DNA from: Mytilus trossulus
Taxonomy: Eukaryota
Direction: 5' to 3'
Length of the DNA stretch: 64,000 bases
Assembly: GCF_036588685.1 (NCBI RefSeq)
Contig: NC_086376.1
Coordinates: 58,094,001 to 58,158,000, forward strand
Positions 2,039 through 36,544 of the stretch are shown one piece after another (the first letter of the stretch is position 1; every line of letters begins with the position of its first letter). The translations under genes were made by a program, and so were the position numbers. A model generated the notes under the pieces. That model had not been told where the DNA came from and did no database searches. It worked only from the letters and a program-made list of their open reading frames with translations.

Positions 2039-2051
2039 ATTAACTTGTTGA

Positions 2052-2067
2052 TTTTCTATTTTGACAG
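2052..2067 (+). promoter_or_regulatory. Putative splice acceptor 3 nt upstream of the Helentron start codon
   Basis: ttttctattttgacag|aaaATG: a pyrimidine tract plus CAG ending at 2067. Confidence 0.55.
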
Positions 2068-2070
2068 AAA

Positions 2071-5000
2071 ATGGGTCGTAAAAGAAAGAGTAAAGCTACT
2101 GTAGCTAGAGAGCAGAAGGAGAGAATGAGAAGTAGACGACAAAGCAGTGTTGCCTCTATAGAGTTGGCACCTCTAGGTGAGGAAGAACTCTTAGCCAGAA
2201 GGTTGGCTTCTCCTTGTGAGAAAAATCCTTCAAATGCCCAGAGGTTAGAACCTCCTCTGGGAAGCCTGTCTATCCAAAGCATGGATATGCCACTGAGCTC
2301 TGACTCCCCACCGTGGGTTTGTACTCCACCGAGAGTACCCTCACCAAAGCTTGGTGTTGCAGGACAGACGAAACTGGTGGTAGAAACATCATTAGATGTC
2401 ACCAGTATAATTGAAACAAAGCAAAAGGTTCAAGAATACAATACTGAAACAATACTAAGAATAAACAGTACTGAACCAAATACTAGATTATACAATACTG
2501 AGTCAAATACTACAATATACAATACTGAATCAAACACTAGAATATACAATACTGAATCAATACTAGAAATCAATACTGAAGAATGCAATACTGAATCTAA
2601 ACAAGAAATTAACAATGAACTAATGCAAGAAATGCAAACTGAACCTATACCAGAAGTAAAAACTAAACCCAAATCTGTGTACAGAACACAAGAATCAAAA
2701 GACATAAACATATCGACATTACAAACAGATCAGTCAGATTGCGAGATCGAATCGAAAATAAGGCTAACATTAGAATTTGATGAACCACCAAAAACAAAAA
2801 AAGCAAAGTTAGAATCTGTATGTAGTTCAGGCTTTAAAATGTTGCCTCATAATGTTCATTTAAACATAGCTTCAGGGAGTGAAGAAAGCAATAGTATCAA
2901 GTCAGTAAAAGTGAATGGTTGTTCAAAAAATAATATAAATTTTATAGGTGGCAAAGTTGATATTAGAAACAATAAACATTCCTCTGATTCTTCTCATTAT
3001 AGCAAAATAAGATCAAGAAAGCTAATTCAGGGGAAAACAGAAAATGAAGAAACTGACCTTAATTTAAGAGATCAAGAAGAAACTAGAAATGAGGTAAGGA
3101 ATTTAGAAAATACATATTCAGTTAATCAACCATTTATGATGCAAGGTAGTTTCCATCAAGGTGATGACAGGTTCAGAAACAATAGTGGTAAACAATGTGT
3201 AGCAAATTCATTAACAGCCATAGCTTACAGCAAACTCAGTTTGATTGATAATTGGAATATGACTTTCTTGGACAAAATCTTGATAGAAGGGAATATTTTG
3301 TATACTTGGATTCATGGTGATAATGAAGAATTGTTAGTAACAGAATTGCCGAAAATGGTGGAAATAAGAGATATGATTGTTAAGTGTAACAGAAAAGAGT
3401 CGATATTTGCTTTAATAGATAATAATGGTAAAATTGAATTTAATGTTCTTTCTTTGGATCATGCTCTTCAAGAGGCTCTTATTGATTCAGATGGATGTTT
3501 TGTTTGTGTAAGGGGTTTTACTAGTGCCATTATTAGGCAAAATGGGAAAATGTATTTATTTGATTCGCATGCTAGAAATTGTTTTGGTTTACAAGACAGC
3601 TGTGGTAAAAGCGTTGTTATTCAAATAAATGATGTGAACAGTTTGTACCAACACTTTTACAATTTTGTGCAAGGGGATGTAAATGCAGAATTTGAAGTAA
3701 CAGGTATCAACATTGAAATTCAAGATGAAGATTCTGTCACTAACAATCTTGACAAATTTATTGGAAATATTAACAATAGAGAGGTTTTAGAGGATGAAAA
3801 CAACTCGGACGTAGAATTTATTGGTGTCCCAACTCAAACCTGCTATTTATTTAATCCAATTGATTATTGTACAAAAAGAAAACTTTGTAATATTTTAGAT
3901 ATTAAATCGAAATTTGTTTTGAAAATCCCGCTTATGCCAACACACAGTATAGGTACGCCTTTAAAATCAAAACAAATCACTGCAGACGGCAACTGTTTAT
4001 TCAGAGCTATTTCATATGCAGTATCAAACAGGCAAGAAAACTTTAAACAAATAAGAAATGAATTAGTGCGCCACATCTTGCGTCATTCACATCAGTTTAA
4101 TTCTTTTCTTGATTCTGAAACAGTCAATGAGTATATGAAACGTACTAATATGATAGAAGACAATGTTTGGGGAACTGAGTTAGAAATTATAGCTGCTGCT
4201 GATTTATTAAAAACTGACATTTTTACATATTTAGAAGGTAAATGGATTAAATACTCATCAAAGCAAATCTGTAGCAAGAATAATGTGAATGATCAAGCAA
4301 TTTATCTTAATAATGTAGGTAATCACTATGAAGTTGTTCTTTCTGTTTTACCTGGTGGTAAAGAAGAGGTAACGTTAAAGAGTAAAGAAAGTGCCAAGAA
4401 ACGAAATCAATCTGGTATAGAGAAAGACCAAATGAACTTACACTATGAACTATCTCATGAAGGTACAATGAAGAGAAAATATGAACAACATGAGTTGAAT
4501 ATTCCAAAAAAAGTCCTGAAAAGAGAAAAAAATAGTTTTGGTTTAATTGTGGAAGAAAAATATTTGTTGGAAAGGCCAAGAAAAGAACCAGGTGTTTGTA
4601 AACCTCCAGAAATAGAAGAAGGTTTTAAAAAATCTGAAAAAGAAAAAATGAAGTATCAGATGGATCCTCAGTTTAGATTCAATAAATTAGAAAAAAAGAA
4701 AATGAGGTACAAACAAGATAAGTCATACAAAGAAGGGTTAATTCAAACTGGAAAGGAAAAGTATATGAATGATGCTAAATACAGACAATATATACAACAA
4801 GCTTCTAAAGATAAATATATTAGTGATAAAAAATACAGGGAATCAAAGAAAATAGGAAGTATTCAAAAGTATGCAAATGATGAAGAACACAAAAGTGCAG
4901 TCAAACAGGCAAGCATACAGAAATATGCTGATGATGATGAATTCAAAGGTGAAGTCAAACAGGCAAGCATACAGAAATATGCTGATGATGATGATTTCAA

Positions 5001-8000
5001 AAGAAAAGTCAAACAGGCAAGCATACAGAAATATGCTGATGATGATGATTTCAAAAGAAAAGTCAAACAGGCAAGCATACAGAAATATGCTGATGATGAT
5101 GAATTCAAAAGTGAAGTCAAACAGGCAAGCATACAGAAATATGCTGATGATGATGATTTCAAAAGAAAAGTCAAACAGGCAAGCATACAGAAATATGCTG
5201 ATGATGATGAATTCAAAAGTGAAGTTAAACAGGCAAGCATACAGAAATATGCTGATGATGATGATTTCAAAAGAAAAGTCAAACAGGCAAGCATACAGAA
5301 ATATGCTGATGATGATGAATTCAACAGTGCAGTCAAACAGGCAAGCATACAGAAATATGCTGATGATGATGAATTCAAAAGTGAAGTTAAACAGGCAAGC
5401 ATACAGAAATATGCTGATGATGATGATTTCAAAAGAAAAGTTAAACAGGCAAGCATACAGAAATATGCTGATGATGATGATTTCAAAAGAAAAGTCAAAC
5501 AGGCAAGCATACAGAAATATGCTGATGATGATGATTTCAAAAGAAAAGTTAAACAGGCAAGCATACAGAAATATGCTGATGATGATGAATTCAAAAGTAA
5601 AGTCAAACAAGCAAGCATACAAAAATATGCTGATGATGATGATGATTTCAAAATTAAATTGAAAGATCAGTTGTTGACAAGAAGACAGAATGCCAAAGAA
5701 GAAAGTAAAGACATTATAAAAGTTATTGAAAATTTTAGGGAAAATGTAAGTAAGGGTCCAGAATTTGTTTGTGCTTGCTGCTTTAGACTTTGTTTTGAAA
5801 ATCAAGTTGTTCAATGTAAAAGAGAATTGTATAAACCAGGTTCTGCTAAAGCTATAGCGGACACATGCATTTCTGAGAAGTATTTACATATATGTTCAAA
5901 TGAATGCAGAGATGAATGTTTATTTAAGCAAACAAACAGAGTTACACTTTGGATTTGTTACACATGCCATAGAAAGATTCTTAAAGGAAAAATACCTGCT
6001 GAATCTTTTGCTAACAACTTGGCTTTAGAAGATATTCCATTAGAACTTAACAGATTAAATCAACTAGAACAACACCTTATTTCATTAAATATACCTTTCA
6101 TGAAAATTGTTGCTTTACCTAAGGGTGGACAAAAAGCTGTGCATGGTCCATGTGTTTGTGTACCATCAGATATTTCAAAGGTCACAACAACTTTGCCTAG
6201 ATCAGAAGATGATAATTGTTTAGTGAAAGTTAAACTCAAAAGAAAATTACAGTACAAAGGTTATGAGGAATATCAGTTTGTGGACACTAAACATTTGGAA
6301 GAAGCCTTGTCCTTTTTAAAAGAAAAGAATGATTGGTATTCAAATGTTGAAATAGATGGAGAGTGGTTGAATCCAATTCCAACATCAGAGATTAAATGTG
6401 GTGCTGATAAAAAAGATAATGAAAGTAATACAAGAACTGACAGAGTAATAAAGGATAACTTGGAGGACAAAACAGGCAAAAAAGAACAGGAAGATGCAGT
6501 TGATTCATATTTAGATGATAGTTTACAGGGTGTACAGTTTGACACATGCTTACAGCCTGCTGACATTGCACAGGAAGCATTGGATTTATTGTTTGATCAA
6601 GAGTTTAATATATCCCCTGCAGAAGGAAATAATCCAGTCAGTTTACTGAAAGAAAAGGGCATTGAAGCAAAAACCTTTCCAGTGCATTACCCTACAGGTA
6701 AAAACACTTGGAATGAGGACAGAGAAGAAAAATTATCTTTATTAAGGTATTTTAATTTGAGATTAATGAGTGTCGAAAATAGGTTTGCTAGAGATACTTC
6801 CTACATATTCTTTTGCCAGTATATGTCTGAACTAGATAGGGTCATGTCAAATGTACAGATATCGTTACGGAAAGGGTCAGTATTTTCAGATGGACAGAAA
6901 GTAACAAGTAAAATGCTGTGCAATAAGGAGTCTTTAAATGGATTATTTAGAAAAGATGAAGCTATCAAGTTCATGAAACCTGTCCGAGGAACACCACCAT
7001 ATTGGCAATCTATTCAGAAGGACATTTTTTGTATGATTAGACAGTTAGGTATACCCACATTCTTTGCCTCATTCTCATCCGCAGATTTTAGATGGAAAGA
7101 AATTGTAGAAACCATATTGAAGCAGCAAGGAGATATTCGTAATGTTGACGATCTTAGTTGGGATGAAAAATGTAAAGTCCTTTGTAGTAACCCTGCTACA
7201 GCAGCAAGAATGTTTGATCACAGGTTTCACAAATTTCTTAAAGATGTGATAATGTCAGATGCTGAACCAATTGGTCATGTGATTGACTACTTTTATAGAG
7301 TTGAATTTCAACAGAGAGGTTCCCCACATACTCATTGTGTATTTTGGGTAGAAGATGCCCCCAAATTTGGAGTAGACAATGATGATACTGTTACAAAGTT
7401 CATTGATAAGTATATCTCTTGCAAATTACCGTTGGAAAATGATGACCCAGAGCTTACTGACATTGTTAAAACCGTTCAACAGCATAGCAAAAACCACTCA
7501 AAAAGTTGTAGGAAAAAAGGAACAGAGTGTCGGTTCAATTTCCCAAGACCACCATCTGAAAAAACATTTATATCCCGTCCAATTGAAGACAATGAGGAGG
7601 ATAAGGAACATGATAAAGATGCTGATGATGGTAATAAGTCTGAATCTGAAAGCAGTAAACCATGTGAAAAGACATTTATACCATGTCCAATGAAACCTGA
7701 TGATCATCATCATCATGATAAACATACTGATGGTGATATTAATGAGAAATCAGAATCTAAGGGCAGTATCTTAAAAGCAAAACAGATGTTAGCATGTTTA
7801 TGGGATGTAATTAAAGAGTGTGAGGATAAAAGTTTGACTACCGGTGAATTATTTTTGAAAGCAGGAATGTCTCAGGAAGATTTTCAAGAATGTTTTAGAT
7901 GGATAACATACAGAAATACTGTTGTGTTAAAGAGAAATAAAGATGAGTTGTTTATTAATCAGTACAACCCTCATCTGCTGAAATCATGGAATGCAAATAT

Positions 8001-11000
8001 GGATATTCAGTACATATTGGATGCCTACTCGTGTGTGGTTTACATTATAAGCTATATAAGCAAATCAGAACGTGAACTTGGCTTGTTACTGCAGCAGACA
8101 AAAATTGAGGCAGCGGATGGAAATTTGGATGCACAGCAGACTATGAAAAAAGTAGGCACAGCATACTTTCACTTTCGAGAACTAAGTACACAAGAAGCTG
8201 TTTTCAGAGTCATAGGTTTACGTTTAAAAGAATGTTCTAGAAAAGTGCAATTCATTCCAGTAGGAGAAAATCCATGCAGAATAAGTAGACCCCTCAAAGA
8301 ACTGCAACAAAAATCAAAAACATTAAAGATGAAGAAGTCTATAGATGAAAGCAGTGATGATGATGGTGATAGTGATGATATTTGGCTGAAAAGTATTACT
8401 GATAGGTATACAAATAGACCTGATCTAGAACGCTTTGATCAGATGTGTTTAGCAACATTTTGTTCTGAATTTTCAGTGTTAGCAGAGACACAGATACCAA
8501 ATAAAATTAATGAGGACACCACATTCAAACTTAAGAATGATATGGGGTATATCAGAAAAAGGACAAGGACTTCTGATGCTGTTATAAAATATGCAAGATT
8601 TTCTGTAGAAACAGCTCCTGAACAATACTACCAAAGTATATTACAGTTGTTTTTGCCATACAGATTAAATGAGCAATTAAAACCACCACAGTTTTTATCA
8701 TATGAGGATTTTTACAACTCTGGATTTATAAAGTACAGTCAGATGGAAGATCTCTGTTCAGTTCAAAATAAAGTCAACTTTAACATGTCAAAATTTGTGA
8801 AGAAAGACAAGGAGCTAGAGATTGCAGAGAAACAATTGGAAGAAAGAGGATATCAAGAGGATGCATGGGCACAACTATGTCCAGAAACAGAGAAAGAAAG
8901 ACATGAATGTAATGAAGTTGGTGAAAACACAACCACTCAAGAGGTAGAAAGTCCTGAATTAGAAATACCAGATTTGAATCAGACTGACAAGCCAACTGAA
9001 AATGGAATGGTTCAAAAAACATGTTTTTCAAGGTCTGAAGTTATACCGTTGTTGAGAACTTTGAACGAGAAACAAAAGCGCATATTTTTTAAGATCAGAG
9101 AGTGGTGCAATTTTAAAGTGAATGGTAAGAATCCACCGCCATTTCATGTGTTTGTAACTGGTGGTGCCGGAACAGGTAAAAGCCATCTGATTAAATGCTT
9201 GTATTATGAGGCCACAAGAATTCTTGCACACTGTTCCCCAAATCCTGATGATTTGACTGTGTTGTTAACTGCACCAACTGGCACAGCAGCTTTTAATATA
9301 AATGGATTGACAATTCACAGTTCACTTTCCATTTTTAAAGGTTTATCAGTTGAAAAAGCTATGCTTGGAGAAGATAAGCTGAATAGTTTAAGGTCCAAAT
9401 TAGAGAATTTACAAATTCTCATCATAGATGAAGTCTCAATGGTCAACAAAAGGTTGTTATTTTTTATTCATCAAAGGTTGCGTCAAATTAAGAAAAGGCC
9501 TGAGAAGTATCCTTATGGAGGAGTTTCAGTGATAGCAGTGGGTGATTTCTATCAATTACCACCAGTAAAATCAAAAAGGTCAGATAAACTTTATGTTAAT
9601 GATCCATCAAATCCTTTGAATTATCTGTGGAATGATCTTTTTTCTGTTGTGGAATTAGATGAAGTCATGAGACAGAGAGAAGATAGTTTGTTTGCCCAGT
9701 TGTTGAATAGACTAAGGGTCAAACAGAACAATTATCCACTAAAATCTTCAGATCAAGAAATGTTGAAAGAGTGCATAGATAGTGGACCAGATGAAGCTCT
9801 GCACATTTATGCTACAAATAATGAAATTAACATGTACAATAATGAAATGATTATGAAGTTGTCGAGTGAGCCCAAATTAATTGAAGCTCAAGATTTTGAA
9901 AAAGATAAGACAACAGGGAAACTTATGAAGAGAAGACAGAATTTTTCAAAAACCAATATTTGTCTTCCAACATCAATCCTGTTAGCAGAAGGAGCTCGTG
10001 TGATGATGATAAAAAATGAAGCAGTCAGTGATGGTTTGGTGAATGGTGTTATGGGTACTGTTCTCAGTATTTCAGAATTTTCAAAAGGAGCATTACCGAA
10101 CAACATATATATTCATTTTGATAATGATAGAGTTGGAAAAAATGCAAAAGTACAGAAGATAATAAATGGAAAAAGATGTGTTGGATTAGAACCATCTACA
10201 GAAAATATATCATTTAGTAATGGAACAAGAAAACAGTATCCTCTGCAGCTAGCATGGGCATGTACTGTTCACAAGGTTCAGGGTTTGACAGTGCCACAGG
10301 CAGTTGTCTGCTTGAATAAATGTTTTGCCTATGGTCAGGCATATGTTGCATTGAGTAGAGTTACTTCAAAAAATGGGCTGACTATATTACCAATTGATGA
10401 TAAAACTTTGAACAAAAAAATATACAGTGATCCTGATATAATGGAGGGGATGAAATCCATGGATAATTTTTTGTCTCAAAATGACACCATAGTTTCAAAT
10501 CATAAAGCAGGTTTGTCAATAGTTTACCACAATATTCAAGGTCTAAAGGCTCACCAAAATGATTTGAAAGCCAATTCAGACTTCCAAAATGCAAATTATA
10601 TCTGTTTGACTGAAACATGGTTGGAATCTTGTAGTGATGATGTTCACCTTCCTAATTATAAACTTCATCATTTGCCAAGGTCAGCAGCATTTGCATCAAA
10701 TAATCCTTTGTATGCTTCTTTACAAGAAATGAGTCATGGTGGAGTTGGTGTATATGTTAAGTCAGATTCTGAGTATGAAGAATTTGATACATCTCAAAAA
10801 AATCTTGAATGTATAATTTTCAAAGTTCCGAAAATGAATGTTCTAATTGCTACAATATATAGAACTCAAAAATACCAAATTGAACTATTTTTAAGAAATG
10901 TTCGTGCTCTTTTGTCAGAATTGACACAGCTTTCAAGCAGTATTATTGTTTTAGGAGACTTTAATCAAGACATAATAAAGGGTGGCAGTTCAATTCAAGA

Positions 11001-11178
11001 TTTTATGGCTTCATTTGGATTTGAACAGTTAGTACAAGAGGCAACAACAGAGGGTGGTACACTGATTGACCATGTTTATATCAAAAGTTGTGTTAAAGTA
11101 CAAGTAAGTGTTATTCCAACTTATTACAGTTATCATGATGCAATATCTGTCATTTTGGAAATAAACCCTACTTCTTGA
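2071..11178 (+). CDS. Helentron (Helitron2) Rep-helicase-endonuclease polyprotein, 3035 aa, apparently intact
   Basis: Single stop-free ORF. Rep HUH motif VEFQQRGSPHTH (~7300-7335) and Y2 motif YIISYISK (8041). PIF1/SF1 helicase with Walker A GGAGTGKS (9160), Walker B IIDEVSM (9421), VGDFYQLPPV, QYPLQLAWACTVHKVQG and GQAYVALSRV. C-terminal APE-type endonuclease (HNIQGL, CLTETW, GDFN, IDHVY, SYHD). A C-terminal APE domain is characteristic of Helentrons. Confidence 0.96.
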   Translation: MGRKRKSKATVAREQKERMRSRRQSSVASIELAPLGEEELLARRLASPCEKNPSNAQRLEPPLGSLSIQSMDMPLSSDSPPWVCTPPRVPSPKLGVAGQTKLVVETSLDVTSIIETKQKVQEYNTETILRINSTEPNTRLYNTESNTTIYNTESNTRIYNTESILEINTEECNTESKQEINNELMQEMQTEPIPEVKTKPKSVYRTQESKDINISTLQTDQSDCEIESKIRLTLEFDEPPKTKKAKLESVCSSGFKMLPHNVHLNIASGSEESNSIKSVKVNGCSKNNINFIGGKVDIRNNKHSSDSSHYSKIRSRKLIQGKTENEETDLNLRDQEETRNEVRNLENTYSVNQPFMMQGSFHQGDDRFRNNSGKQCVANSLTAIAYSKLSLIDNWNMTFLDKILIEGNILYTWIHGDNEELLVTELPKMVEIRDMIVKCNRKESIFALIDNNGKIEFNVLSLDHALQEALIDSDGCFVCVRGFTSAIIRQNGKMYLFDSHARNCFGLQDSCGKSVVIQINDVNSLYQHFYNFVQGDVNAEFEVTGINIEIQDEDSVTNNLDKFIGNINNREVLEDENNSDVEFIGVPTQTCYLFNPIDYCTKRKLCNILDIKSKFVLKIPLMPTHSIGTPLKSKQITADGNCLFRAISYAVSNRQENFKQIRNELVRHILRHSHQFNSFLDSETVNEYMKRTNMIEDNVWGTELEIIAAADLLKTDIFTYLEGKWIKYSSKQICSKNNVNDQAIYLNNVGNHYEVVLSVLPGGKEEVTLKSKESAKKRNQSGIEKDQMNLHYELSHEGTMKRKYEQHELNIPKKVLKREKNSFGLIVEEKYLLERPRKEPGVCKPPEIEEGFKKSEKEKMKYQMDPQFRFNKLEKKKMRYKQDKSYKEGLIQTGKEKYMNDAKYRQYIQQASKDKYISDKKYRESKKIGSIQKYANDEEHKSAVKQASIQKYADDDEFKGEVKQASIQKYADDDDFKRKVKQASIQKYADDDDFKRKVKQASIQKYADDDEFKSEVKQASIQKYADDDDFKRKVKQASIQKYADDDEFKSEVKQASIQKYADDDDFKRKVKQASIQKYADDDEFNSAVKQASIQKYADDDEFKSEVKQASIQKYADDDDFKRKVKQASIQKYADDDDFKRKVKQASIQKYADDDDFKRKVKQASIQKYADDDEFKSKVKQASIQKYADDDDDFKIKLKDQLLTRRQNAKEESKDIIKVIENFRENVSKGPEFVCACCFRLCFENQVVQCKRELYKPGSAKAIADTCISEKYLHICSNECRDECLFKQTNRVTLWICYTCHRKILKGKIPAESFANNLALEDIPLELNRLNQLEQHLISLNIPFMKIVALPKGGQKAVHGPCVCVPSDISKVTTTLPRSEDDNCLVKVKLKRKLQYKGYEEYQFVDTKHLEEALSFLKEKNDWYSNVEIDGEWLNPIPTSEIKCGADKKDNESNTRTDRVIKDNLEDKTGKKEQEDAVDSYLDDSLQGVQFDTCLQPADIAQEALDLLFDQEFNISPAEGNNPVSLLKEKGIEAKTFPVHYPTGKNTWNEDREEKLSLLRYFNLRLMSVENRFARDTSYIFFCQYMSELDRVMSNVQISLRKGSVFSDGQKVTSKMLCNKESLNGLFRKDEAIKFMKPVRGTPPYWQSIQKDIFCMIRQLGIPTFFASFSSADFRWKEIVETILKQQGDIRNVDDLSWDEKCKVLCSNPATAARMFDHRFHKFLKDVIMSDAEPIGHVIDYFYRVEFQQRGSPHTHCVFWVEDAPKFGVDNDDTVTKFIDKYISCKLPLENDDPELTDIVKTVQQHSKNHSKSCRKKGTECRFNFPRPPSEKTFISRPIEDNEEDKEHDKDADDGNKSESESSKPCEKTFIPCPMKPDDHHHHDKHTDGDINEKSESKGSILKAKQMLACLWDVIKECEDKSLTTGELFLKAGMSQEDFQECFRWITYRNTVVLKRNKDELFINQYNPHLLKSWNANMDIQYILDAYSCVVYIISYISKSERELGLLLQQTKIEAADGNLDAQQTMKKVGTAYFHFRELSTQEAVFRVIGLRLKECSRKVQFIPVGENPCRISRPLKELQQKSKTLKMKKSIDESSDDDGDSDDIWLKSITDRYTNRPDLERFDQMCLATFCSEFSVLAETQIPNKINEDTTFKLKNDMGYIRKRTRTSDAVIKYARFSVETAPEQYYQSILQLFLPYRLNEQLKPPQFLSYEDFYNSGFIKYSQMEDLCSVQNKVNFNMSKFVKKDKELEIAEKQLEERGYQEDAWAQLCPETEKERHECNEVGENTTTQEVESPELEIPDLNQTDKPTENGMVQKTCFSRSEVIPLLRTLNEKQKRIFFKIREWCNFKVNGKNPPPFHVFVTGGAGTGKSHLIKCLYYEATRILAHCSPNPDDLTVLLTAPTGTAAFNINGLTIHSSLSIFKGLSVEKAMLGEDKLNSLRSKLENLQILIIDEVSMVNKRLLFFIHQRLRQIKKRPEKYPYGGVSVIAVGDFYQLPPVKSKRSDKLYVNDPSNPLNYLWNDLFSVVELDEVMRQREDSLFAQLLNRLRVKQNNYPLKSSDQEMLKECIDSGPDEALHIYATNNEINMYNNEMIMKLSSEPKLIEAQDFEKDKTTGKLMKRRQNFSKTNICLPTSILLAEGARVMMIKNEAVSDGLVNGVMGTVLSISEFSKGALPNNIYIHFDNDRVGKNAKVQKIINGKRCVGLEPSTENISFSNGTRKQYPLQLAWACTVHKVQGLTVPQAVVCLNKCFAYGQAYVALSRVTSKNGLTILPIDDKTLNKKIYSDPDIMEGMKSMDNFLSQNDTIVSNHKAGLSIVYHNIQGLKAHQNDLKANSDFQNANYICLTETWLESCSDDVHLPNYKLHHLPRSAAFASNNPLYASLQEMSHGGVGVYVKSDSEYEEFDTSQKNLECIIFKVPKMNVLIATIYRTQKYQIELFLRNVRALLSELTQLSSSIIVLGDFNQDIIKGGSSIQDFMASFGFEQLVQEATTEGGTLIDHVYIKSCVKVQVSVIPTYYSYHDAISVILEINPTS
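2437..2600 (+). repeat. Coding 27-bp (9 aa, YNTESNTRI-like) tandem repeat in the low-complexity N-terminus of the ORF
   Basis: tacaatactga at 2437, 2491, 2518 and 2545, with degenerate copies between and after. Confidence 0.85.
3136..3720 (+). other. Herpesvirus large-tegument-type (peptidase C76 / VTD-like) deubiquitinase domain within the Helentron ORF
   Basis: GSFHQGDDRF-x4-GKQCVANS (Cys codon 3196) and MYLFDSH (Asp 3562, His 3568) match the QC...FD(S/P)H signature of this family. Domain limits are approximate. Confidence 0.85.
3970..4340 (+). other. OTU-family cysteine protease (deubiquitinase) domain within the Helentron ORF
   Basis: ITADGNCLFRAIS (Asp 3985, Cys 3994), WGTELEI and NHYEVV (His 4324) are the canonical OTU motifs. 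Confidence 0.92.
4900..5658 (+). repeat. Coding minisatellite: 14 x 54 bp (18 aa, VKQASIQKYADDD[D/E]FK[RK/SE])
   Basis: Unit starts gtc/gtt-aaaca recur every 54 bp from 4900 to 5602. About 3-4 degenerate units precede them (~4690-4899). Confidence 0.97.
5755..6000 (+). other. Cys/His-rich putative zinc-binding region preceding the Rep domain
   Basis: GPEFVCACCFR...HICSNECRDEC...WICYTCHRKILKGKIP, a pattern typical of the region N-terminal to Helentron Rep. Confidence 0.7.
10510..11160 (+). other. APE/EEP-family endonuclease domain of the Helentron ORF
   Basis: Motifs SIVYHNIQGL, ICLTETWL, HGGVGVYV, IATIYR, IVLGDFN, TLIDHVY and YSYHDAI occur in the expected order. Confidence 0.92.
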
Positions 11179-12418: not shown

Positions 12419-13264
12419 AAATAAATAGACAACACTTTGTATGCATAAAGATCATGGTCACTCCGACCTTGACCCTTGATTCCAATGTCATTGTCTCAAA
12501 ATTGAATTTACTACAGTAAATGGTAACTTATATGAATGTCCTGGGTTTTAGATGTGCGCATTTTCTTTAGGTGTGTGTTATTTATTGGTCAGATGGACTG
12601 TATAGTTTTGGTTGAGAATGAAATGTAATAGATATAATATGTGTATACTTTGTAAATGACTGCATAAGAAGAAATGATGTCCTTATATTGAATAGCTCAA
12701 TTGTTAGAGTTTTAATAGCTTGTATGCCATGTAATGATAATGTATTGAAGGGTTTTTTTTACAGTTAAAAGACAATGCATAGTTTTGTTTTTTCTGGTAA
12801 ATTTATTTGTACTGTTTATAAAGCTTATTTCCTGTAACCACAAGCATTTATATACCAGTTAACATTTTAAATGTAATTTGCAGAATAGCAATTAATGAGT
12901 ATGTACCATGTTTAAATTTTCAATGAACAAATATTGTATTTGCATTGCTAACTGAGTAAGAAATACATTATAAACATGATTAACTGACTGTAATATTCTT
13001 GAAATGGAAAAGTCTAATGAAAGTATAAAAACTTAACATAGAATAATAGAGAAATTTATCCTCCTACAAAACAACAGTAACACATTTCCTTTGTTTTCAC
13101 TGTAATTGATATTTTTCTGTATTTGTTGTATACCATATACTGTTTCTTCACAGCTGTACAACTGTATCATTTGCTATTGATGTATTTGTCTGTAAACCTT
13201 TTTATCAGCATGTTTTTTTTCAGAATATAGCTTTTTAACCTATATATATATATATATAAGATAT

Positions 13265-13426
13265 AACTCGTCTAAACATCAACCCAACAATGTTAGATCT
13301 GTAAATTTGCTTTCGCAAATTTTTGGTTCTTCCCTCGCCGGGATTCGAACCCATGCTACTGTGATATCGTGACACCAAATCGCCTGCACTGCAGCCGTCC
13401 CGCTAGACCACACGACCACCTGGGCT
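13265..13426 (-). mobile_element. tRNA-derived SINE-like element flanked by (TA)n
   Basis: Minus strand reads gcccaggTGGTCGTGTGGtctagcg...atgGGTTCGAATCCcgg: Pol III A box (13408-13418) and B box (13341-13351), too far apart for a normal tRNA. (TA)n on both sides. Confidence 0.8.
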
Positions 13427-13547
13427 AAATATATATATAAGTACGTTTAAACAAGTGACAACTCTACAACAGATCCATCCATTGGATTATTAGTGAAGGT
13501 GATACACAGCTTAAAACACATATTGAATTCATAATTACTCTATAAAT

Positions 13548-15234: not shown

Positions 15235-16528
15235 ATTTCATTTTTTGATACTGTGAATGTAAACATAGCTAGTAATATTTTTACTGTCAATTATGGTTAT
15301 ACCCTCAAGGAAAGGTCAAATATCTTCGGGCTAAATATTACAAAGTTACTTAATGATCCACCATTTTCCACTTCAAGACTTCTGAAACTGTCACAATTGA
15401 TTATATGATCCAGTCAAAAATTTACATCCTGTATAATTTTAACTCTTTAGGTTTTGTCTACCAATTATGATGCAGGTAAATGTTCTTATTTGGGCAGATA
15501 ACTAAGCAACACACTTACAGGGTAACATCCACATACGTATAAAACTCTAAGTTCATTATCTTGGACCTGTCTTATTCATGATGTGAAATATGTTTTAATA
15601 GATATTAAATGTATTGAAAAGAAAAGCATTTAACACATACAGTCCTTAAAATATTGTCAAAAACATTAAATGGGTACTCTAGGATTTGACATGTGACTGT
15701 ATGAGATTTGCCAAGTAGATTGGTCCCTTGTATGCTTATTTAAGACACCATTGACTAAAAATTAGGTTAAGGAGTAAAAGTTATTTTAAGGAACTGTTAA
15801 CAGGGGTTATGCCATTTATGAAAAGATCAAATCTCTTCCGTCAACACCTACCAAATTTGTGCCTTTTTTACCAAAACAATTTTTCAACTATTGATAGGTC
15901 TATACATATAAGGGTTTCTAGAATATCACAAAACAAGTAGTGAGGTCAAATGTCAAGGTCAACCTTACAAAACTTTAACACACACTTAAAACCCTTAAAA
16001 TAATGTTAAAAACACATGATTCCCTATCTGAGACATTACCTTGTAACCTTTTGTCAAAATCATTGGTCCACGATGTCATTACAAAATACCCCATGGGTGT
16101 AGGACCTTTGTTTCAAGAGTTAAAGGTAATGTTGTTTTTTTCAGAAACAATCAGTAGGGGTTATGCCCCTTACGGATAGGTCAAATCTCTTTGGGATATG
16201 CCCCTTACGGATAGGTCCATTATGACCCAAAGATTTTTCACTATTTACCATTTCTGTAAATATAATAGATTTTGAGATATCCAGTAAAAGGTTTTAAGGT
16301 CAAAAAGTCAACCTTAAAAAGCTTAAAAACACACTAAAAATCCTTTAAATAGGTCAAAAACACATAATTTGTTATCTGGGACAGACCTTGACCTTGTGAC
16401 CTTTGTCAAGGTCATTAGTCCCAAATGTCATTGCTGAAGATCCCATGGGTCTAGGACCTTTGGTTGTTTAGTAAAAGCTGGTATTGTCTTTTCAGAAACC
16501 TAAAACTGGGGTTATGCCCCTTACAGAT

Positions 16529-16982
16529 GGGACAACATCCCTAATGCGCCTTGAAATGAGGAACTCAAAAGTCACGTGTAAAGAAAAAATCTCTGTGTAG
16601 TGATATTGGACATGTTTCTATTTTTAACAAATGACTGAACTTAATTATTTGTGGTGATTAGGAAAGTAGAGGAACATAGAATAAATGTGTAAAAACTATG
16701 GAGCTATTGAATGTGTTCAAAGTATTAAATTTTCAAAGAACTTATTGTGTTAAAAAGGGGATATTTTACCACAAGGAGCCACATCACAAACGGATGTTCG
16801 GGGTTTGCTAATTTACGGAAAAAGTAATCTCACTTCGTACCCCGAAAATTTAACCACATATGTGAAAATGTCACAGCTTCGAAACGAGCTATCATACATA
16901 TCCAAGTTTACGATATGGACTGAGCTACAAGAAAAAACGTTACCATTATCGCCTATGGAAAAACAATTAAAGATATTGAGCC
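16529..16982. repeat. Left long terminal direct repeat (454 bp)
   Basis: Near-identical to 18747-19200. Confidence 0.95.
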
Positions 16983-18746
16983 AATTTACAAAAAGATAAA
17001 TCAGAAGTTTCCAGAGTGATCTATGGATGATTTCACCTTATACACCCGGGAAAATTGTGAAAATGATGGTAAGTATTTTTTTATTTATACCTATATATCC
17101 CAGAGGATTTCAGATAACCATTATAGATAAATACCAGCAGATACTCAATGAAATTTTCGCTTTTAGAAAGCATTACAGGCACGGGGCTGAACACTTTTTT
17201 TAGGCACAATTCTAACTTTGTTTACACCCCCCGAGAGATCCGAAAGGAATTTGTTTATGAATTGAAAAAGGCATGAACTAACATAATAGTTTTATCTGTA
17301 AGTAAACATGACACAATACAGTCTTTGTTATGTAATTATCACTCCGGATTACAGGAATAACTGATAATCAAGGGAGATAACACACTCCATACGAGTAAAG
17401 TGAAATACATCATCATCATGTGCTTTTATCCAATAATTTGACCCATGGTCAGTCAGTAGATATCATATGCAGTTAATAAACAGACAAACATGTACATGTA
17501 TTAAAGAAATCATGAATTATTATTTGTAATGCACACTAGCAAATCACAAGATATTGTCTTTTCTCAGTGAAAAAGGGGGAGGGTCAACAAACCTTTCGAA
17601 AACAATATTGCTGCACCTTTTCAACTTTTAAGCTAGTTAGCTACCACTCGTTGCTTCTAATATAAAAGATTTAAACGAAGGTTGATAAGCCACAAGGGAG
17701 AAGCATTTTTCTTTCTTTGCGATAAAACGTTCAAGAATTTGATTTTTGCTCTCTCAATAATACTTATGTATTTAAACCAAATAATAACACAGCCTGAGTA
17801 TTTTTTTTGTCTTATTTCAGTTCCAGACATATCATTACTTTTTAACCTGAGATGACAAACTAGAGGTTTTAAAAGGTCCTGAATAACTGGTAAGCATTTT
17901 GTTTTATTTGGCAAGCTCTAAATTGTTTATTTATGGTATTTATGCAATTCAAATTACAGTCGGTATGTTAAATATATACTGATATGAAAACTGTTGCTAT
18001 GGTCTTGGCATTAAATGAAAATGCTTGGTTACTGTTCTTTTCGACTCCATATTTCAAGTTAAACCTTGCGGCAACTGTTCCTCATGTAACTCTGCAAACT
18101 ATAATTAGCATTATTTTGATATGTCGTTATTTAATGACGCCATATTACGTGTGATGTCACAATGTATCCTTTAAAACCTCATGCCAATATCTCACTGATA
18201 AAAGATTTTCACTGAAATACATGTAAAAAACATTTTTTCTCAAATACAATTATGTGAAAGAACAAGTTTTGAAAATTTGCACTTCATTGCACTCTAATTA
18301 TATGATTCAAATGACTTTTACAGTAATTTATAGTGGTTTCTACAGTATAAAATACCAGGTTTCCACTGGCTAGAATAATTAAGTATTTTGGTGTTTTTTT
18401 TATGAAATCTTCATTTTTGCATAATTTCTCTGTCAAAATGCACTTTTAGGCACCAGAAAATTTTATTGCATGCTTTAACAGGGTCTGTGTGTTGTAATTT
18501 AAGGTTACATTCAGATGTTTTGTCCTTCTTTTGACTAGTGAAGGTATACTGTAAGAAATTAATTATGCATACACTTTGTATTCAAAATAAATAAATATAG
18601 CGATAAAAGTGTCATTGCCTTATAGTGCTGAAACAACTTTATTTTTTTTCAGAAATGGACAAAAATACACAGATTTATTCAGAATGTCATACCGATGAAG
18701 ATCACATAAAAATATTTGGAAAAATCAGAACTATGGATTGCAATAT

Positions 18747-19200
18747 GGGACAACATCCCTAATGCGCCTTGAAATGAGGAACTCAAAAGTCACGTGTAAA
18801 GAAAAAATCTCTGTGTAGTGATATTGGACATGTTTCTATTATTAACAAATGACTGAACTTAATTATTTGTGGTGATTAGGAAAGTAGAGGAACATAGAAT
18901 AAATGTGTAAAAACTATGGAGCTATTGAATGTGTTCAAAGTATTAAATTTTCAAAGAACTTATTGTGTTAAAAAGGGGATATTTTACCACAAGGAGCCAC
19001 ATCACAAACGGATGTTCGGGGTTTGCTAATTTACGGAAAAAGTAATCTCACTTCGTACCCCGAAAATTTAACCACATATGTGAAAATGTCACAGCTTCGA
19101 AACGAGCTATCATACATATCCAAGTTTACGATATGGACTGAGCTACAAGAAAAAACGTTACCATTATCGCCTATGGAAAAACAATTAAAGATATTGAGCC
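18747..19200. repeat. Right long terminal direct repeat (454 bp)
   Basis: Near-identical to 16529-16982. Confidence 0.95.
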
Positions 19201-20131
19201 AGATATGTCAAATCTCTTCGGTCAAATGTAAAAAGTTGCGCCGCATCCATCTCAATGATTTTCACTATTTACTATTTTTGTAAATGCAATCGTTTTTGAG
19301 ATATCGACTAAAAAGTTGTAAGGTCAAAGGTCAAGGTCAACCTTAGAAGGCTTTAAAACACACTGAAAATCCTTCAAATAAGTTCAAAAACACATAATTC
19401 ACTACATTTGACATGACCTTGACCTTTGACCTTTTGACCTTTGTCAAGGTCATTAGTCCCCAATGTCATTGCTGAAGACCCCATGGGTCTAGAACCTTTG
19501 GTTATATAGCAAAAGCTGAATTTGTCTTTTCAGAAACCTAAAACAGGGGTTATGCCCCTTATAAAAAGGTCAAATCTCTTTGGTCAAAATGTAACAAAGT
19601 TGCGCCGTAATGACCCAAACATTTTCCACTATTTAAAACTTCTGTAAGTATAATGGTTTCTGAGATTATCCCATAACAAGGTGTTAGGTCAAAGGTCAAG
19701 GTCAACATACAAATTTGACCTTGAGGTATTTTTCAAAGATACATGAATTGATGATGATTGGTGAAGATCCTAGGTGTCTACGACTTACAGTTTCTGAGTT
19801 TAAGTGGCCAACCGACACCGGTTAATTTTCAAAGGGGCATAACCCTACCAATGAGTCGTTGAATCTTTTCGATCCAAATGTAACGAAGAACCGGGGTCTG
19901 GTCCTGAACAAATTTCACCCTTTGCTTTTTTTCTACCTATTACGGTTACGATGTTGGAACGATAACAAGGTTTTTGGGTTTCGGAGGGATTACTCCGAAC
20001 CGACAAAATATTTCGACTCACAGGGTGAGTTCCAGATAGGTATTCATGACACCAATACAAAGTGTGAACATGAAAGCGACATGGTTTACGGTTACGGAGG
20101 GAAATTTTGTCAAAGTTTGGCGGAACAAAAA

Positions 20132-20171
<40 letters not shown>

Positions 20172-20238
20172 CAGAAGAAATACAGTAAGGTCTTTCCTTA
20201 TAGATAAAGGAAAGACCTTAATAATAATAATAATAATT

Positions 20239-21450
20239 AAAAACCAATTGTTCAGAGAACCATTGATGGTCTTTCCACCAGTAAAGATATTTTTTTATAT
20301 GAAAATATTCAAATTTGGTTTTAAATGTCAATTTTAGCCGTCAAATGACAGCTTATTGAACGCTGATTCCAAAAATATATGGTTTCTATACAAAAAGATA
20401 TAAATAAGGGAGATCATTCTTTACTTCCGGTTTAAAATATGTTGTTTCCGGTATTTTTCGATAGTTTACTTGACACTGATTTCATAAATATATGGTTCTA
20501 TATACTTTTACATTAATTTAGTACAAAATATAGCTACTTCCGGTTAACAAATTGTCACTTCCGGTTGGCTTTTTCTAGATCACATTGCTTGCAACCTAAT
20601 GCAAAAAAAACCATGGCTTTATCATGTATACATATGAGGTAAAAGCAAAGGTCAAAATCTAGAACGTTAAATTTACATATGACCTTGAGCTAAATTTCAA
20701 GGTCATCAGCCAAGGACCTCAAATCAAAAGACTCTAGGCCTCTACCTTATACTGTTAATGAGTTATATTACCATACAACTAATATTAGATATAAAAGGGG
20801 GAAAACTTGCCTCAAACGTCTACATACTCTTTCAACTAATATTTACGTGTTACGACATGTCGCAACTAACAATTGTGTGAAAATATTTTGTCGATATCTT
20901 AAAAGATTTCTGAAAATAAGAGATCACAAGCCAAAATCAAAATTTTAAACATGACTTTGACCTTTGACCTTGACCTCATTTTCATTATTTTGGACCAAGG
21001 ACCTCAAAACAAAAGACCCTAGGCCTCTAACACTTATGGTTTTCCAGTTAAAAATGCATATCACTTATATCAAATATAAAAGGGGAAATAACTCTCATAT
21101 GGAGTCTCCGGATAGCTTCGGTGAAAATAAATCAAATCATCCTGAGGATATAACGAGCAATTCGGTTAAATAAATTTGTCGGTTTCTTATATGGTTGTGA
21201 ATATTAAGCGATCACAAGAAAAACAGTGTTTGGGGAGATAACTCTTACATTGAAAAGATTTTGGTTACGCGGTGTCAGTTTCAAAAGCGTATTAATTGTT
21301 CGATATCATATACCATATATCTAAGCGACATCTTGCGAAACCAAAAAATTGCGAAGGAACAAAAAGTTGGCGGAAGAAAAAAAATAATAATAATAATAAT
21401 AATCAGAAGAAAACCAATAGGTCTTTCCACGGAAAAGTGGAAAGACCTAA
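20239..21450 (-). mobile_element. Complete HINE on the minus strand inserted in an (AAT)n tract
   Basis: Right end has inverted repeat taggtctttccac-ggaaaa-gtggaaagaccta (21418-21449) next to (AAT)n. Left end has the matching subterminal ggtctttccac (20268-20278) and imperfect hairpin caattgttc-aga-gaaccattg (20245-20265). Confidence 0.8.
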
Positions 21451-24400
21451 TAATCAGAAGAAATACAGTAAGGTCTTTCCTTATAGAAAAAGGAAAGACC
21501 TTAATTACCCGTTCTTTATCCTAGAACTAATACATAGTTTTATTGTTTAATTAGTCCTCGTCCTGAATATGCACGAAGATAACAACGTCTTCATACAATT
21601 AAATAACAATAATATTTTTCTTAGCGATGCACGTGGGGATGTAATTTATAAGACACCATGCTTTCTATATGAAGGGACTTAATTAAAAACATCAAATTAA
21701 GAATGTTTCATAATATACCTAATGCAAGTGCAAAGAACGATGCAACTAACAAATAAATTAAGCTACAGCTGAGTTCAGATTAAAGCTTAAACTGTTCTTT
21801 TTGGATTACAAAAAAATCACTCAATATTTTGAGTACTTGTTTTAAAAGCAGTGCACATTTGTTCACTGGACTAGTAATTCCCAGGCTTTTTCTTTTTCAA
21901 TTAGAGCTTCAAACGATAACATTAGATGAAATATAATAAAACTAATATACGCCATTATCAATGTCAATGAATGACTGAAATGAACAAAGAGATTTTTTTA
22001 TAGAAAACATACCATGCTGTTTATTAAAGCAATTATTTTGGTCTATTTAAAATAAAAACCTATATTTTTATCTCTCGTTTAAATGGTTTTTGATTGAGAT
22101 GCTACTCTGTGACATTTTTTCAAAAAATATTATTCAATTTTAATCAAAGTGAGTTAATACGTTTCATTTCCAACTTAAACATTAGTTAAGTAAAAGCAAA
22201 CATGGAACCGAATTATTTTAATTATTTGTAATTATTTAAGCAATCTAAATTAAGTTCGATGTTTTAAACACCTTTTTAACAATCATTTAAACAAAATGAC
22301 ATGATAGTTAACACGTAAACTTCAGCATTTGAGAATCAAATGGAAAGTCAATAAACTGTTTATGAAAATGTATTTGATTCATAAAAACATTGTTCGTTAT
22401 CAACTGGTACTCTGTAGGTCCGGTACTCTGTAGGTCTTACATCTTATGTACATGATACATTTAAAAATTACTCACCACATTAAAGCCGTGAAAATTTTAT
22501 AAAATCGGTAAAATTTGCCATTTACGCTCTGATTTACGCGTAAAGTATCTATGTTAAGACAGAAGTTTAATCAATTTTATATTACTTTAGCATAAAAATT
22601 TAATAAACTACATTTTTTTCTTCATGAAACATCGGAATGGTATATAAATAAATAAAAATGCCATTATTCAAACATGATCATTTAACGTTATTGTTGTGAA
22701 TTTTAAGTAAGATAAAAGCCGTGGTTATTGATCAGAGGCTTTTACTTTCCGCCCTGTATGGATGTGGAAAGACTTTTCCGGTATTAAAGCGCCGTGTGTT
22801 TTAAATATGCGGCAATACATCAATACCACGCTGGCAATTTAGCTGTAATTTGAATGTAACATGACATAATAAAAATACTTTTCAGGCGCATCACTCTTAA
22901 TAATTATGGTAATAGAACAGCTCTACGTCTAAACGGCTGAAAATTATGTTATTTTCACTCATAAAGATTGGCTCATTGAATCACTGTACAAGAAAATTGA
23001 CATGGCAAATTATAACTATACTGGTTCGTAATTTGATCTAGTCACACCTGAAAACATAATAACTAGCAGAAACATGTCTTATGGTACGGAATGTCTTATA
23101 TAAACAATATATAAAACCACAGAGAACTCTGTAACCCAGATATGTATACGTCAAACAGAGACGAATGTTTGGAATGTTACAATAGAATATCTGTACTTTC
23201 AACTAGACTTAAGAAAAGTGTCTTATTAATGTTGGTCCTTTAGAGTTTAAGGTTTTCTTTTCTTCTCTGACAAGTTGAGGATCATTTACCAAAGTCTGTC
23301 TTATTTGAGCAAATGTTTACATGTACTTTAAAAAACTTCTTGGTTACAAACAAATCATTCAGTTTGGAGTTCATAAGATCCTCCAGGTACTATACAAAAG
23401 CGAAGACTCTGGTGGATAGTTGACTAATTTTCAACAATACCACATCTCCTTTTTTTTCATCCTGCATGTTCCTTCTTGGAATTCTGATGTTTTAAACGAC
23501 CCCGGTATATTTTAAATGGCATTTGGATATTTTAAATAATTCAGTACATAATAAATAACGAGTAACGCATGCACAGTGTACTTTTTTCTCATACTTCACA
23601 AATTTCCCTATCCCTCTGTCTCGTGATGGCTTCCATTATTGTTATATAGATATCAACAATTTCGGCAGACAATTATCCTTTAAACGACATTGATTTAATT
23701 AATCTCAAAATGCCGATTCGTCTCTTTTGGACATTAATGTTCAATTGTTTTGACTAGAAAAGTGACATTTACCCTTATAGTCATCAGTTGTAAACGACTA
23801 TCAATAAAATTACGATTCTGTTACAAGAAAAAACATTAAAGGTGTTCCCTGCAAGACAGAAGGGTTTAAATATTCAGACACAAGACCAGACCAAGAGCGT
23901 TATTAGTAGTTATAAACTTGGTTAGACTACTCTGTTTTTTTTTCAAGTTTACGACGAAGCCAAGAAAATGAAGATCGTTTTGATTAATATTCCTTCAATT
24001 ATTTAAATTCTGCATGGTATAAAACTAGAAACCTAATAACGTTAGTCATCATGCTTCACGTGACATCTTTTTCAATATAAAATTTCATTCCAAAATGTAA
24101 AGAATTTATAGTGAATTTTTGAGAGTTTGATTAAATAACCATTCCCATGGAGATCTAAATGATGCTCGTATTTAGACATTTTCATTTTACAGTTGGCACA
24201 TCAACAGGGAAACTTCATTGACTTAAAAACTTTGGTATCAATATGCTGCATGAATCGAATTTTATTAGAAAAATCAATGCGAGAGAATCACGTTTGATAC
24301 TTCTACCAGAACTTCTTATAGTGCATCTTGGCGGCATCTTATTGAATTTAGCCAAGTTATAGAAATCATCATTGTATTTTGCATGTTAACTTTACATAAA

Positions 24401-34852: not shown

Positions 34853-36544
34853 ACCGTTTAGTGAAATACAGAATCTTGTCCTACATCTTTGGTAGAATTT
34901 TTTTGTCATTTACATCATGTTGCTATTTATCTATTAAAATCTATAATATTGCATTAAAGATGTTGAAATTAGATATAATTGATCAGGTTAACGCCTTCAA
35001 CTTATATTTGTTATCACGTATCTGCTTGGTTGCTATCAATTTATTTTTCTTCTTTATCTCTTTTGGTACAGATAGACTTAGTGTAAACAAAAGAAGACAT
35101 GCTGCTATACACGGCTCATAGATGTGACATGTGATAAAATTGGTATTCGATGCTTGAACCAATATATCTATACATTAACAATTTTAAAAGATAGTGTCAA
35201 TTTTTCTTTTTACTGTTTATGAAGAAAAACAACGAAAAACTCAAGTTGGAAGTTACACTTTTAATTTTAAAGTTACTAACACAAAAGTATTAGTTTTAGA
35301 ATGGTTGATTCTTTAAAACTTCAATATCATTGAAATTTCCTCAATTGTAAGACTAAACAACGCATTTTAACGACAAGGTATATGATTTGTTTTGTAAACA
35401 AATAATGACAACACCCCAGTATTTGTTTCTCTTTTAGGGTCACAAAGTTGTCAAAATCTTTTGAACTAGATATTAACTGGGACTAATATACTATATATGT
35501 ATAATAGTCCCAGATATTAAGAGGGTCTATAGCATATACATTTAAATTTGAGTATTTTACTGTTAGATATTTTTGTAAAACCACAAAGTTATTCAGCACG
35601 TTGGAGGAATTTTGATACAATACTGCACTATTCAAAGGTAACAGTGTGTATGCTAACAAAAATGAATTCTTGGGTATCCGAAAGACGAAGCATAGTTTTA
35701 CTTTCAACAGAATTTTGTTCTGGGTTACCGATGCCTTTCTTGTGCAGTTAGGTGAATCATACTCAAAGTTAGCATAAATGTTTTTAAATATGATTAAAAG
35801 TTTGCTGACAAGTTTAGAAATAACCCAAATCATTGTAAAAACGTTATAAGGCAGAATTTTAGGGTATGGCGCTATGACTCTCAGACGATAAATGAATAAA
35901 AGACTTTTCAAAAATGGCCATTGGGTACATCTTAATTTAGAGGAAATTGCCCCTAGTGCTTTTGTAAGAGAAAGAATACCTTCCCATTTAATACTGAGCT
36001 TAAAGAGAAGAAAAAAATCTGATGAATCATGCATTTTTATTTCAATATTTTGTAAATAACGTTTTCAAGACAGCTGTGAAAAATGTGTATTTTACGTGAT
36101 GACATTTAGATATATAATTTCATTACTGCACCAGAACACAAACTGTACATAACATTTTCCACTTCAAAACATTTGTATGTAAAGAACCCAATACTTGCAC
36201 GTTAGTATTCAACTATTCATGCACATTAATATATTGTTCAATATCGTGCTTCGATATGAACATTACAAGCTTTGATTTGATACATAAATTACATACTAGT
36301 ATTACATACATGTAGATTTATTGAAAATTGTTAACTTTTCAGTTGTACAATTTCAAAGACTGTTGGGTAGTTATTTTTTCTTTTCAATTCGAGTTCATTT
36401 AAAAAGTTTGTTACACATAAACCATTTTTTTTATTTTAGGTAAAATAAAAGCAAGTTACTCTTTTGACAGTCTTATTTTCAATTGTATTCTCAAATCATT
36501 ATTAAAAGAAAGTTGCCAAAAACAGATGCAGTATCGTAATACAT

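Follow-up and report, generated by a model that had tools for sequence, protein, structure and literature searches.

A young Mytilus trossulus Helentron with two predicted deubiquitinase domains, set among nested elements of its own family

A 9.1-kb open reading frame (ORF) in a 64,000-nt stretch of the Mytilus trossulus genome (the window, on contig NC_086376.1) raises the question of what two deubiquitinases (DUBs) do in a rolling-circle transposon. A sequence-only reading had described a recently or currently active Helentron polyprotein in which a herpesvirus tegument-type cysteine protease (VTD, viral tegument-like deubiquitinase) is directly followed by an OTU protease, upstream of Rep, PIF1 helicase and AP endonuclease (APE) domains. 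Our analysis indicates that this is an intact, recently copied Helentron of HLE2 type, and that its two DUBs probably work and would shield the transposase or its partners against ubiquitin-dependent degradation. Less familiar is the position of the full copies, each of which is inserted at the end of a further member of the family. Papers cited by PMC number are drawn on as far as their accessible text goes.

Domains and ends of the element

The claimed frame without stops or frameshifts is borne out by translation, its sole stop being terminal, and the closest named proteins, labelled Mytilus, are 96-100% identical (Table 1). All catalytic motifs are where the sequence-only reading had placed them (Q375 at 3193, C376 at 3196, FDSH at 3559-3568, DGNC at 3985-3994 and HY at 4324), so that C376, D498 and H500 of the VTD and D639, C642 and H752 of the OTU are all in place. 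VTD does precede OTU, but about 75 aa lie between the two domains and the one does not directly follow the other. Pfam matches and conserved residues confirm Rep, PIF1 and APE downstream; the layout was right for the domains named but overlooked a region of 18-aa repeats and a DUF6570 domain between OTU and Rep.

Table 1. Features of the Helentron and its immediate neighbours (window positions unless prefixed with G000)
Feature	Position	Strand	Remarks
Autonomous Helentron, part inside window	1-20219	.	whole element G000:C4:58091780 to window 20219; 22,440 bp
3′ end: stem-loop and subterminal repeat	G000:C4:58091788-58091819	-	left of window
Likely splice acceptor, pyrimidine-rich tract plus AG	2047-2067	+	3 bases 5′ of ATG; from sequence
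Single ORF, 3,035 aa	2071-11178	+	VTD - OTU - 18-aa repeats - Cys-rich/DUF6570 - Rep - PIF1 - APE; open in 8/8 copies
VTD (viral tegument-like) deubiquitinase domain	3130-3726	+	aa 354-552; Q375, C376, E425, D498, H500
OTU domain	3949-4350	+	aa 627-760; D639, C642, H752, E754
54-bp repeat, 18-aa unit	4870-5642	+	14.3 copies; predicted helical spacer
Cys-rich region and DUF6570	5764-6372	+	PF20209 E 1.6e-22, above cut-off
HUH Rep domain	6748-8064	+	PF14214 (Helitron_like_N) E 8.9e-31; H1753-x-H1755, Y1991 and Y1995, which we take to be the HUH Rep motif residues
PIF1-type helicase	9061-10371	+	PF05970 E 2.5e-28, PF21530
APE-type endonuclease	10501-11175	+	N2821, E2848, D2963, N2965, D3000, H3022
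(AAT)13 microsatellite just inside 5′ end	20133-20171	.	insertion site of other family members; from sequence
5′ end: 13-bp subterminal repeat and inverted copy, hairpin	20187-20219	-	terminal motifs
Non-autonomous element, sister family B	20236-21450	-	inserted directly outside the autonomous 5′ end
Detached 5′ end of non-autonomous host element	21455-21502	-	body of 1.09 kb on the left side of the autonomous copy; bracket pairing

The first DUB domain matches Pfam Herpes_teg_N (PF04843) at aa 360-503 (E 1.2e-9, 38.5 bits versus a cut-off of 25). An AlphaFold2 model of the DUB region, built from a 56-row alignment (pLDDT 81.6), contains two domains; a single-sequence fold of the same region (pLDDT 32) was discarded in its favour. 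The model gives aa ~355-550 a papain-like VTD fold, closest to the VTD of a zebrafish Helitron (8ADD; Z 25.1, rmsd 2.2 over 195 residues; Foldseek agrees, E 4e-15) and similar to the cytomegalovirus enzyme M48 (2J7Q, Z 21.7). The VTD sequence search against the PDB gave nothing significant (best E 0.38), and 8ADD was found by fold comparison alone. VTDs are defined by a catalytic Cys with Asp-x-His (Erven et al., 2022, PMC9741609), here C376, D498 and H500, and these Cys, Asp and His residues are kept in 66, 67 and 66 of 67 homologues. Ubiquitin probes are bound by three VTDs from zebrafish Helitrons in activity assays, with K48/K63 chains as the preferred substrates (PMC9741609), and by analogy the mussel VTD would cleave the same chains.

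The second domain matches Pfam OTU (PF02338) at aa 638-720 above the cut-off (E 2.5e-12), and the model of aa ~630-760 has an OTU fold similar to OTUD3 (4BOU; Z 14.2, rmsd 2.7 over 127 residues). Its Asp, Cys and His are kept in 64, 63 and 66 of 67 homologues. The third catalytic position of OTU enzymes is usually Asp or Asn; it is Glu here (E754), as it is in 40 of the 67. The putative OTU enzyme is presumably active. Transposon OTU domains were stated to be untested for activity in the accessible text of PMC9741609, and our literature search found no later activity test of them. As a separate observation, the mussel family P0025-P0027 has an OTU without the catalytic Cys segment and an intact VTD; P0026 stands for 11 member sequences, so this family may be an active VTD-only lineage.

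Between the OTU and the Cys-rich domain, an 18-residue period is present in 96 of 102 proteins, and the number of motif units varies from 3 to 15 among genomic copies. Each period would make five helical turns, which suggests a rod-like spacer. An atlas comparison of the repeat via the homologue P0010 gave best scores of 0.79-0.83, within the chance range; an STPR cluster is a mere lead.

The Rep (PF14214) and PIF1 (PF05970) matches are both above cut-off and join an HUH endonuclease and a helicase in one transposase; both Rep histidines are kept in 62 of 67 homologues. Exo_endo_phos (PF03372) at aa 2840-3017 scores below its cut-off (E 0.003; 17.8 versus 24.5 bits), whereas 43-50 of 50 homologue segments retain the APE core residues and PF03372 is present in many homologues. 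Judged by these residues, the C-terminal AP endonuclease characteristic of Helentron/HLE2 elements appears to be present despite the sub-cut-off score. The position before the last catalytic His of APE enzymes is usually Asp; it is Tyr here (aa 3021, window 11131-11133) and in 36 of the 50 segments, possibly a clade-specific active site. At the other end of the ORF, the likely splice acceptor may be compared with a related family's ORF in the array on contig C5, which begins with a similar basic peptide; no spliced reads at the ORF start were found among the RNA joints listed.

Comparison of eight loci set the ends of the element, which reaches about 2.2 kb left of the window start, where homology to the copy on contig C13 begins and from where it continues through the ORF. 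The terminal structures are common to all eight copies and to solo elements of ~0.9 kb. Helentron ends comprise a 5′ subterminal inverted repeat (subTIR) with an inverted repeat, a microsatellite near the 5′ end and a 3′ subTIR with a stem-loop (PMC4067079). Read in this way the ends lie on the minus strand, so the plus-strand ORF is opposite to them. Domains and ends together support the proposed Helentron identity. AAT flanks the element on both sides (ATT on the element strand), as T|T insertion predicts, the sites compared being filled ones. Herpes_teg_N, DUF6570 and the endonuclease occur almost only in HLE2, for which DUF6570 was proposed as a marker (PMC11417382); by domain content rather than by a tree, the element would be placed in HLE2 subgroup b. 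No ORF longer than 126 aa besides the main one was found inside the element.

Two insertions, of ~0.17 and 2.68 kb, within the 22,440 bp are absent from the C13 copy. The larger (window 16527-19201; 457-bp direct repeats 99.8% alike) is absent from all seven other copies and corresponds to 1.2 units of a 2,218-bp repeat, itself young, found solo and in long tandem arrays genome-wide (98-100% identity, 1,881 candidates). A short insertion in an (AT)n tract (window 13232-13433), also absent from the C13 copy, is presumably SINE-like, to go by a tRNA-box motif, and shares 93% identity with part of the family B element on C5. Elsewhere the window holds some 30 tandem units of 51 bp in which all open frames are short (55927-57863) and a 193-aa stop-to-stop frame without a Pfam match (35483-36064, minus strand).

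Copies, selection and expression

In a DNA search of the genome, eight loci matched at 96-100% identity, and other families followed at 64-81%. The frame is open in all eight copies (2,816-3,035 aa). The window copy differs from its closest relative, on C13, at 27 of 19,330 bases (0.14%); the two C6 copies differ at 102 of 20,211 bases, the three copies elsewhere on C4 at 0-2, and the groups from one another by 4-6%. In the whole-element alignment of the eight copies, 17 of 17 indels inside the ORF keep the frame, compared with 59 of 216 outside it. The first half of the activity claim is supported in that the open frames and the small distances indicate recent copying.

Selection was estimated by an approximate count of changes among six distinct copies, two of the three near-identical C4 copies being left out and recombination ignored. 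The VTD, with 22.5 synonymous and 9.5 non-synonymous changes (omega 0.10-0.12, p below 3e-8), is shown to be under purifying selection as strong as that on Rep (0.12-0.15) and the helicase (0.10-0.12). The OTU is less firmly under purifying selection (omega 0.25-0.30, uncorrected p 0.011-0.027): its signal consists of 14 changes, 7 synonymous and 7 non-synonymous, and would fail correction for 13 regions. Omega is 0.27-0.32 for APE, 0.30-0.37 for the VTD-OTU linker and 0.9-1.2 for the stretch after OTU. These values argue against neutral decay of the VTD (~0.1) and probably of the OTU (~0.3). Being within-genome estimates, they show that the VTD is maintained by the element and not by the host.

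RNA reads were examined over L032:7103-9700 (window about 2200-4800), the upstream third of the ORF. On the C13 copy, read set X19 has an ORF depth of 0.14-7.1 with first mates almost all on the plus strand, opposite to most flanking transcribed repeat bins, which suggests antisense transcription across the ORF; in X22 the ORF depth is near zero. Contigs of X1 and X2 cover coding and non-coding parts alike and may be DNA. Neither X19 nor X22 gave RNA support for ORF expression in this third, so that the other half of the claim, current activity, is not borne out by the reads, which are rare and probably antisense.

Possible roles of the two deubiquitinases

The tandem DUB pair had been singled out as the notable feature; it is already published and is the usual state of the clade. 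An OTU is also present in 121 VTD-containing Helitrons, with molluscs among the listed hosts, and the zebrafish element DrT2, studied in the same work, has a VTD and an OTU (PMC9741609). Sixty-six of 68 homologues picked with the DUB region, a choice biased by the query, have VTD followed by OTU. For relatives picked with Rep, 120 were listed of 733 matches, and 77 were scored after 43 with short N-termini had been dropped. Among these 77 listed relatives, 69 have both domains, 5 the VTD only, 2 the OTU only and 1 neither; by a crude motif test of the active sites, 57 have both, 10 only that of the VTD, 7 only that of the OTU and 3 neither. Relatives with one DUB may not be active elements but damaged gene models.

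By analogy with known families, Rep would nick the 5′ hairpin and bind covalently, PIF1 would peel off the strand and the copy would be joined at T|T. Both DUBs would stay tethered to the transposase via the variable spacer and trim ubiquitin from it or from nearby proteins, in keeping with the proposal that Helitron VTDs protect transposition proteins from proteasomal degradation (PMC9741609). Their functions would partly overlap, because some relatives keep only one. A rod-like spacer of such variable length would fit loose tethering better than exact docking on the Rep-DNA bond. Protection of the covalent Rep-DNA adduct, which the sequence-only reading had suggested, is a guess.

A division of labour, in which one DUB clears ubiquitin from the adduct and blocks DNA-protein crosslink repair while the other handles a different chain type or NEDD8, is a somewhat improbable alternative. 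It would account for the VTD-then-OTU order, fixed in 57 of 57 listed proteins with both active sites and kept from mussels and oysters to hagfish and bony fish, for the selection seen on both domains and for the VTD of DrT2, which is paired with an OTU, being weaker and without NEDD8 activity (PMC9741609). However, DrT1 has two VTDs and no OTU (PMC9741609), 17 of the 77 listed relatives have one intact site, and a spacer to Rep that varies between 3 and 15 units in intact copies speaks against exact positioning at the Rep active site.

We consider it unlikely that the DUBs act on host defence, such as germline silencing or stress signalling, and not on the transposase. Herpesviral VTDs do target host signalling as well as cullin ligases, and VTDs that have been domesticated are specific to the male germline (PMC9741609), but nothing in this element points that way, and fusion to the transposase with no conserved cut site would suggest local action. 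The earlier idea that the proteases process the polyprotein itself, like viral papain-like proteases, and so free the DUB module from the transposase, is very improbable: although L-P-G-G follows the OTU directly in the query (aa 760-763) and viral DUBs often cut at di-glycine sites (PMC9741609), LxGG lies within 40 aa after the OTU in 5 of 81 proteins (the printed examples being near-identical own-family copies), any GG after the OTU in 9 of 81, GG in the linker between the two DUBs in 7 of 81 and a 2A-like motif in 0 of 147, and a search for these three types found no conserved cut or skip site between the modules. Local protection of the transposase or its partners by partly overlapping DUBs is the reading that we prefer.

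Nested arrays and comparison with known systems

Every autonomous copy sits among non-autonomous relatives of 0.7-1.2 kb. When each 3′ end opens a bracket and each 55-bp 5′ end closes one, the window locus reads host( autonomous( ) B( ) ), with three openings and three closings. At other loci the bodies form one stack and the 5′ ends another, which is the outcome that nested insertion into (AAT)n predicts. All eight autonomous copies lie at AAT beside a family 5′ end, seven of them after the family (AAT)n and one after a family 5′ end. Sister copies are 99.5-100% alike and their left neighbours 79-95%, which indicates separate insertions.

Exact matches to the 3′ end number 451 across the genome, and those to the 5′ end 665. 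With a slightly shorter 3′ pattern, 259 ends come after AATAAT and 53 directly after a 5′ end; these two classes add up to about two thirds. For the first 30 ends listed, which come from 11 loci and are not independent, hand-reading assigned 13 to the family microsatellite, 7 to a family 5′ end and 10 to other DNA; the automated tally was 15, 7 and 8, and L069 and L078 were moved by eye as false fuzzy matches. An AAT-like tract precedes only 1 of the 10 others. The target space, ~665 x 60 bp, amounts arithmetically to some 3e-5 of the genome.

The pattern is that new copies insert at AAT next to the 5′ ends of family members already in place. As to the cause, it is possible, if short of probable, that the transposase homes to its own family's 5′ hairpin and inserts at the adjacent AAT, building nested arrays as a self-made safe harbour. 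The Rep protein of AAV, which integrates at a site resembling its origin, offers a comparison for such origin-directed integration.

The same arrays could arise with no homing, from a T|T preference on (ATT)n, recombination between units and survival in harmless places, an account that we hold equally tentatively. T|T sites abound on the ATT strand, and this would also explain the shared orientation. Brackets are unbalanced at several loci (openings/closings 11/9 on C13, 23/20 on C4, 16/23 on C5, and 3/2 and 5/4 at further loci), so deletion or recombination does occur, and the 53 exact head-to-tail junctions could stem from joined circles. Against it, the genome offers 3,420 bounded (AAT)5 tracts, yet 20 of the 30 sampled ends are at a family microsatellite or 5′ end; near-identical sister copies have dissimilar neighbours; and family B uses the same sites with no blastn match of at least 80 bp at the ends.

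Two other origins were rejected. An assembly artefact or block duplication does not explain the three near-identical C4 copies, given the mere 88-91% identity of their left neighbours. Whether arrays stem mainly from local tandem amplification was assessed with 51 array units, 2 of which had no match; the best match lay in another array for 34 of 49 and in the same array for 15 of 49, and because other arrays offer more candidates, this rules out dominant local copying only.

Three further loci were noted. The array of the C5 copy contains a nested 31.7-kb autonomous family B Helentron (G000:C5:39341140-39372870, L062-L065) that encodes VTD, OTU and Rep, with one stop in the N-terminal part; tblastx of our element against it gave short matches only, at repeats and ends. 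The three near-identical autonomous copies share an 82-kb array (G000:C4:39682500-39764300, L034-L049) in which the second lies inside the first; some 20 non-autonomous elements, belonging to four types, accompany them. At G000:C1:18.43-18.82 Mb there is a long tandem array with a period of ~2.6-2.7 kb and an (AAT)5 tract per unit.

This Helentron, complete and young, is a practical test case: its ends are defined, intact natural variants number eight and non-autonomous partners exist. With it, it becomes testable whether a transposon OTU is an active enzyme and why the clade keeps two deubiquitinases. If the transposase drives self-targeting, this would account for stacked Helitron ends and for some satellite-like arrays; it would also represent origin-directed integration by a eukaryotic rolling-circle transposon, with a natural, definable landing pad. 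The intact element would then be a ready system for studying both targeting and the roles of the two DUBs.

The design of VTD plus OTU is already known, and in this respect the mussel element is an ordinary further example. It shares with DrT2 and the 121 Helitrons of PMC9741609 the VTD with Cys and Asp-x-His, the OTU, RepHel and the C-terminal AP endonuclease; its predicted fold matches their structure 8ADD, and mollusc hosts are named there. It differs in belonging to another family, with 20% identity to 8ADD, and its DUB activity is a prediction only. For the mussel element, the present work adds the ends, the number of copies, the selection estimates and the pattern of insertion to what the accessible text of that study covers. 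With HLE2 subgroup b of HELIANO (PMC11417382) it has in common DUF6570, Herpes_teg_N, Exo_endo_phos, an upstream OTU and short asymmetric inverted repeats, and its AAT flanks are those that the T|T insertion of this subgroup predicts; unlike that subgroup, no RPA or other second gene was found in it.

The end structures and non-autonomous partners resemble those of Helentrons and their HINE/DINE-1 derivatives, and the minus orientation of the ORF to the ends is that of Helentron-Da-40 (PMC4067079); the piling of mussel copies in nested arrays at own-family 5′ ends is not described in the accessible part of that paper. No account of site-specific nesting in animal Helentrons was found in the literature searched, which included the accessible parts of PMC7492417 and PMC13085455 and lay outside subscription papers and Repbase. 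Self-insertion with stacked 5′ termini has been proposed for Fusarium Helitrons (PMC5148889), and nesting and insertion near other Helitrons are known in maize (PMC3288121), both of which the mussel arrays resemble. Whereas those reports, as far as their accessible text goes, concern few cases or a general neighbourhood bias, in the mussel the pattern extends to 8 of 8 autonomous copies, and about two thirds of the family ends lie at two defined positions ~55 bp apart.
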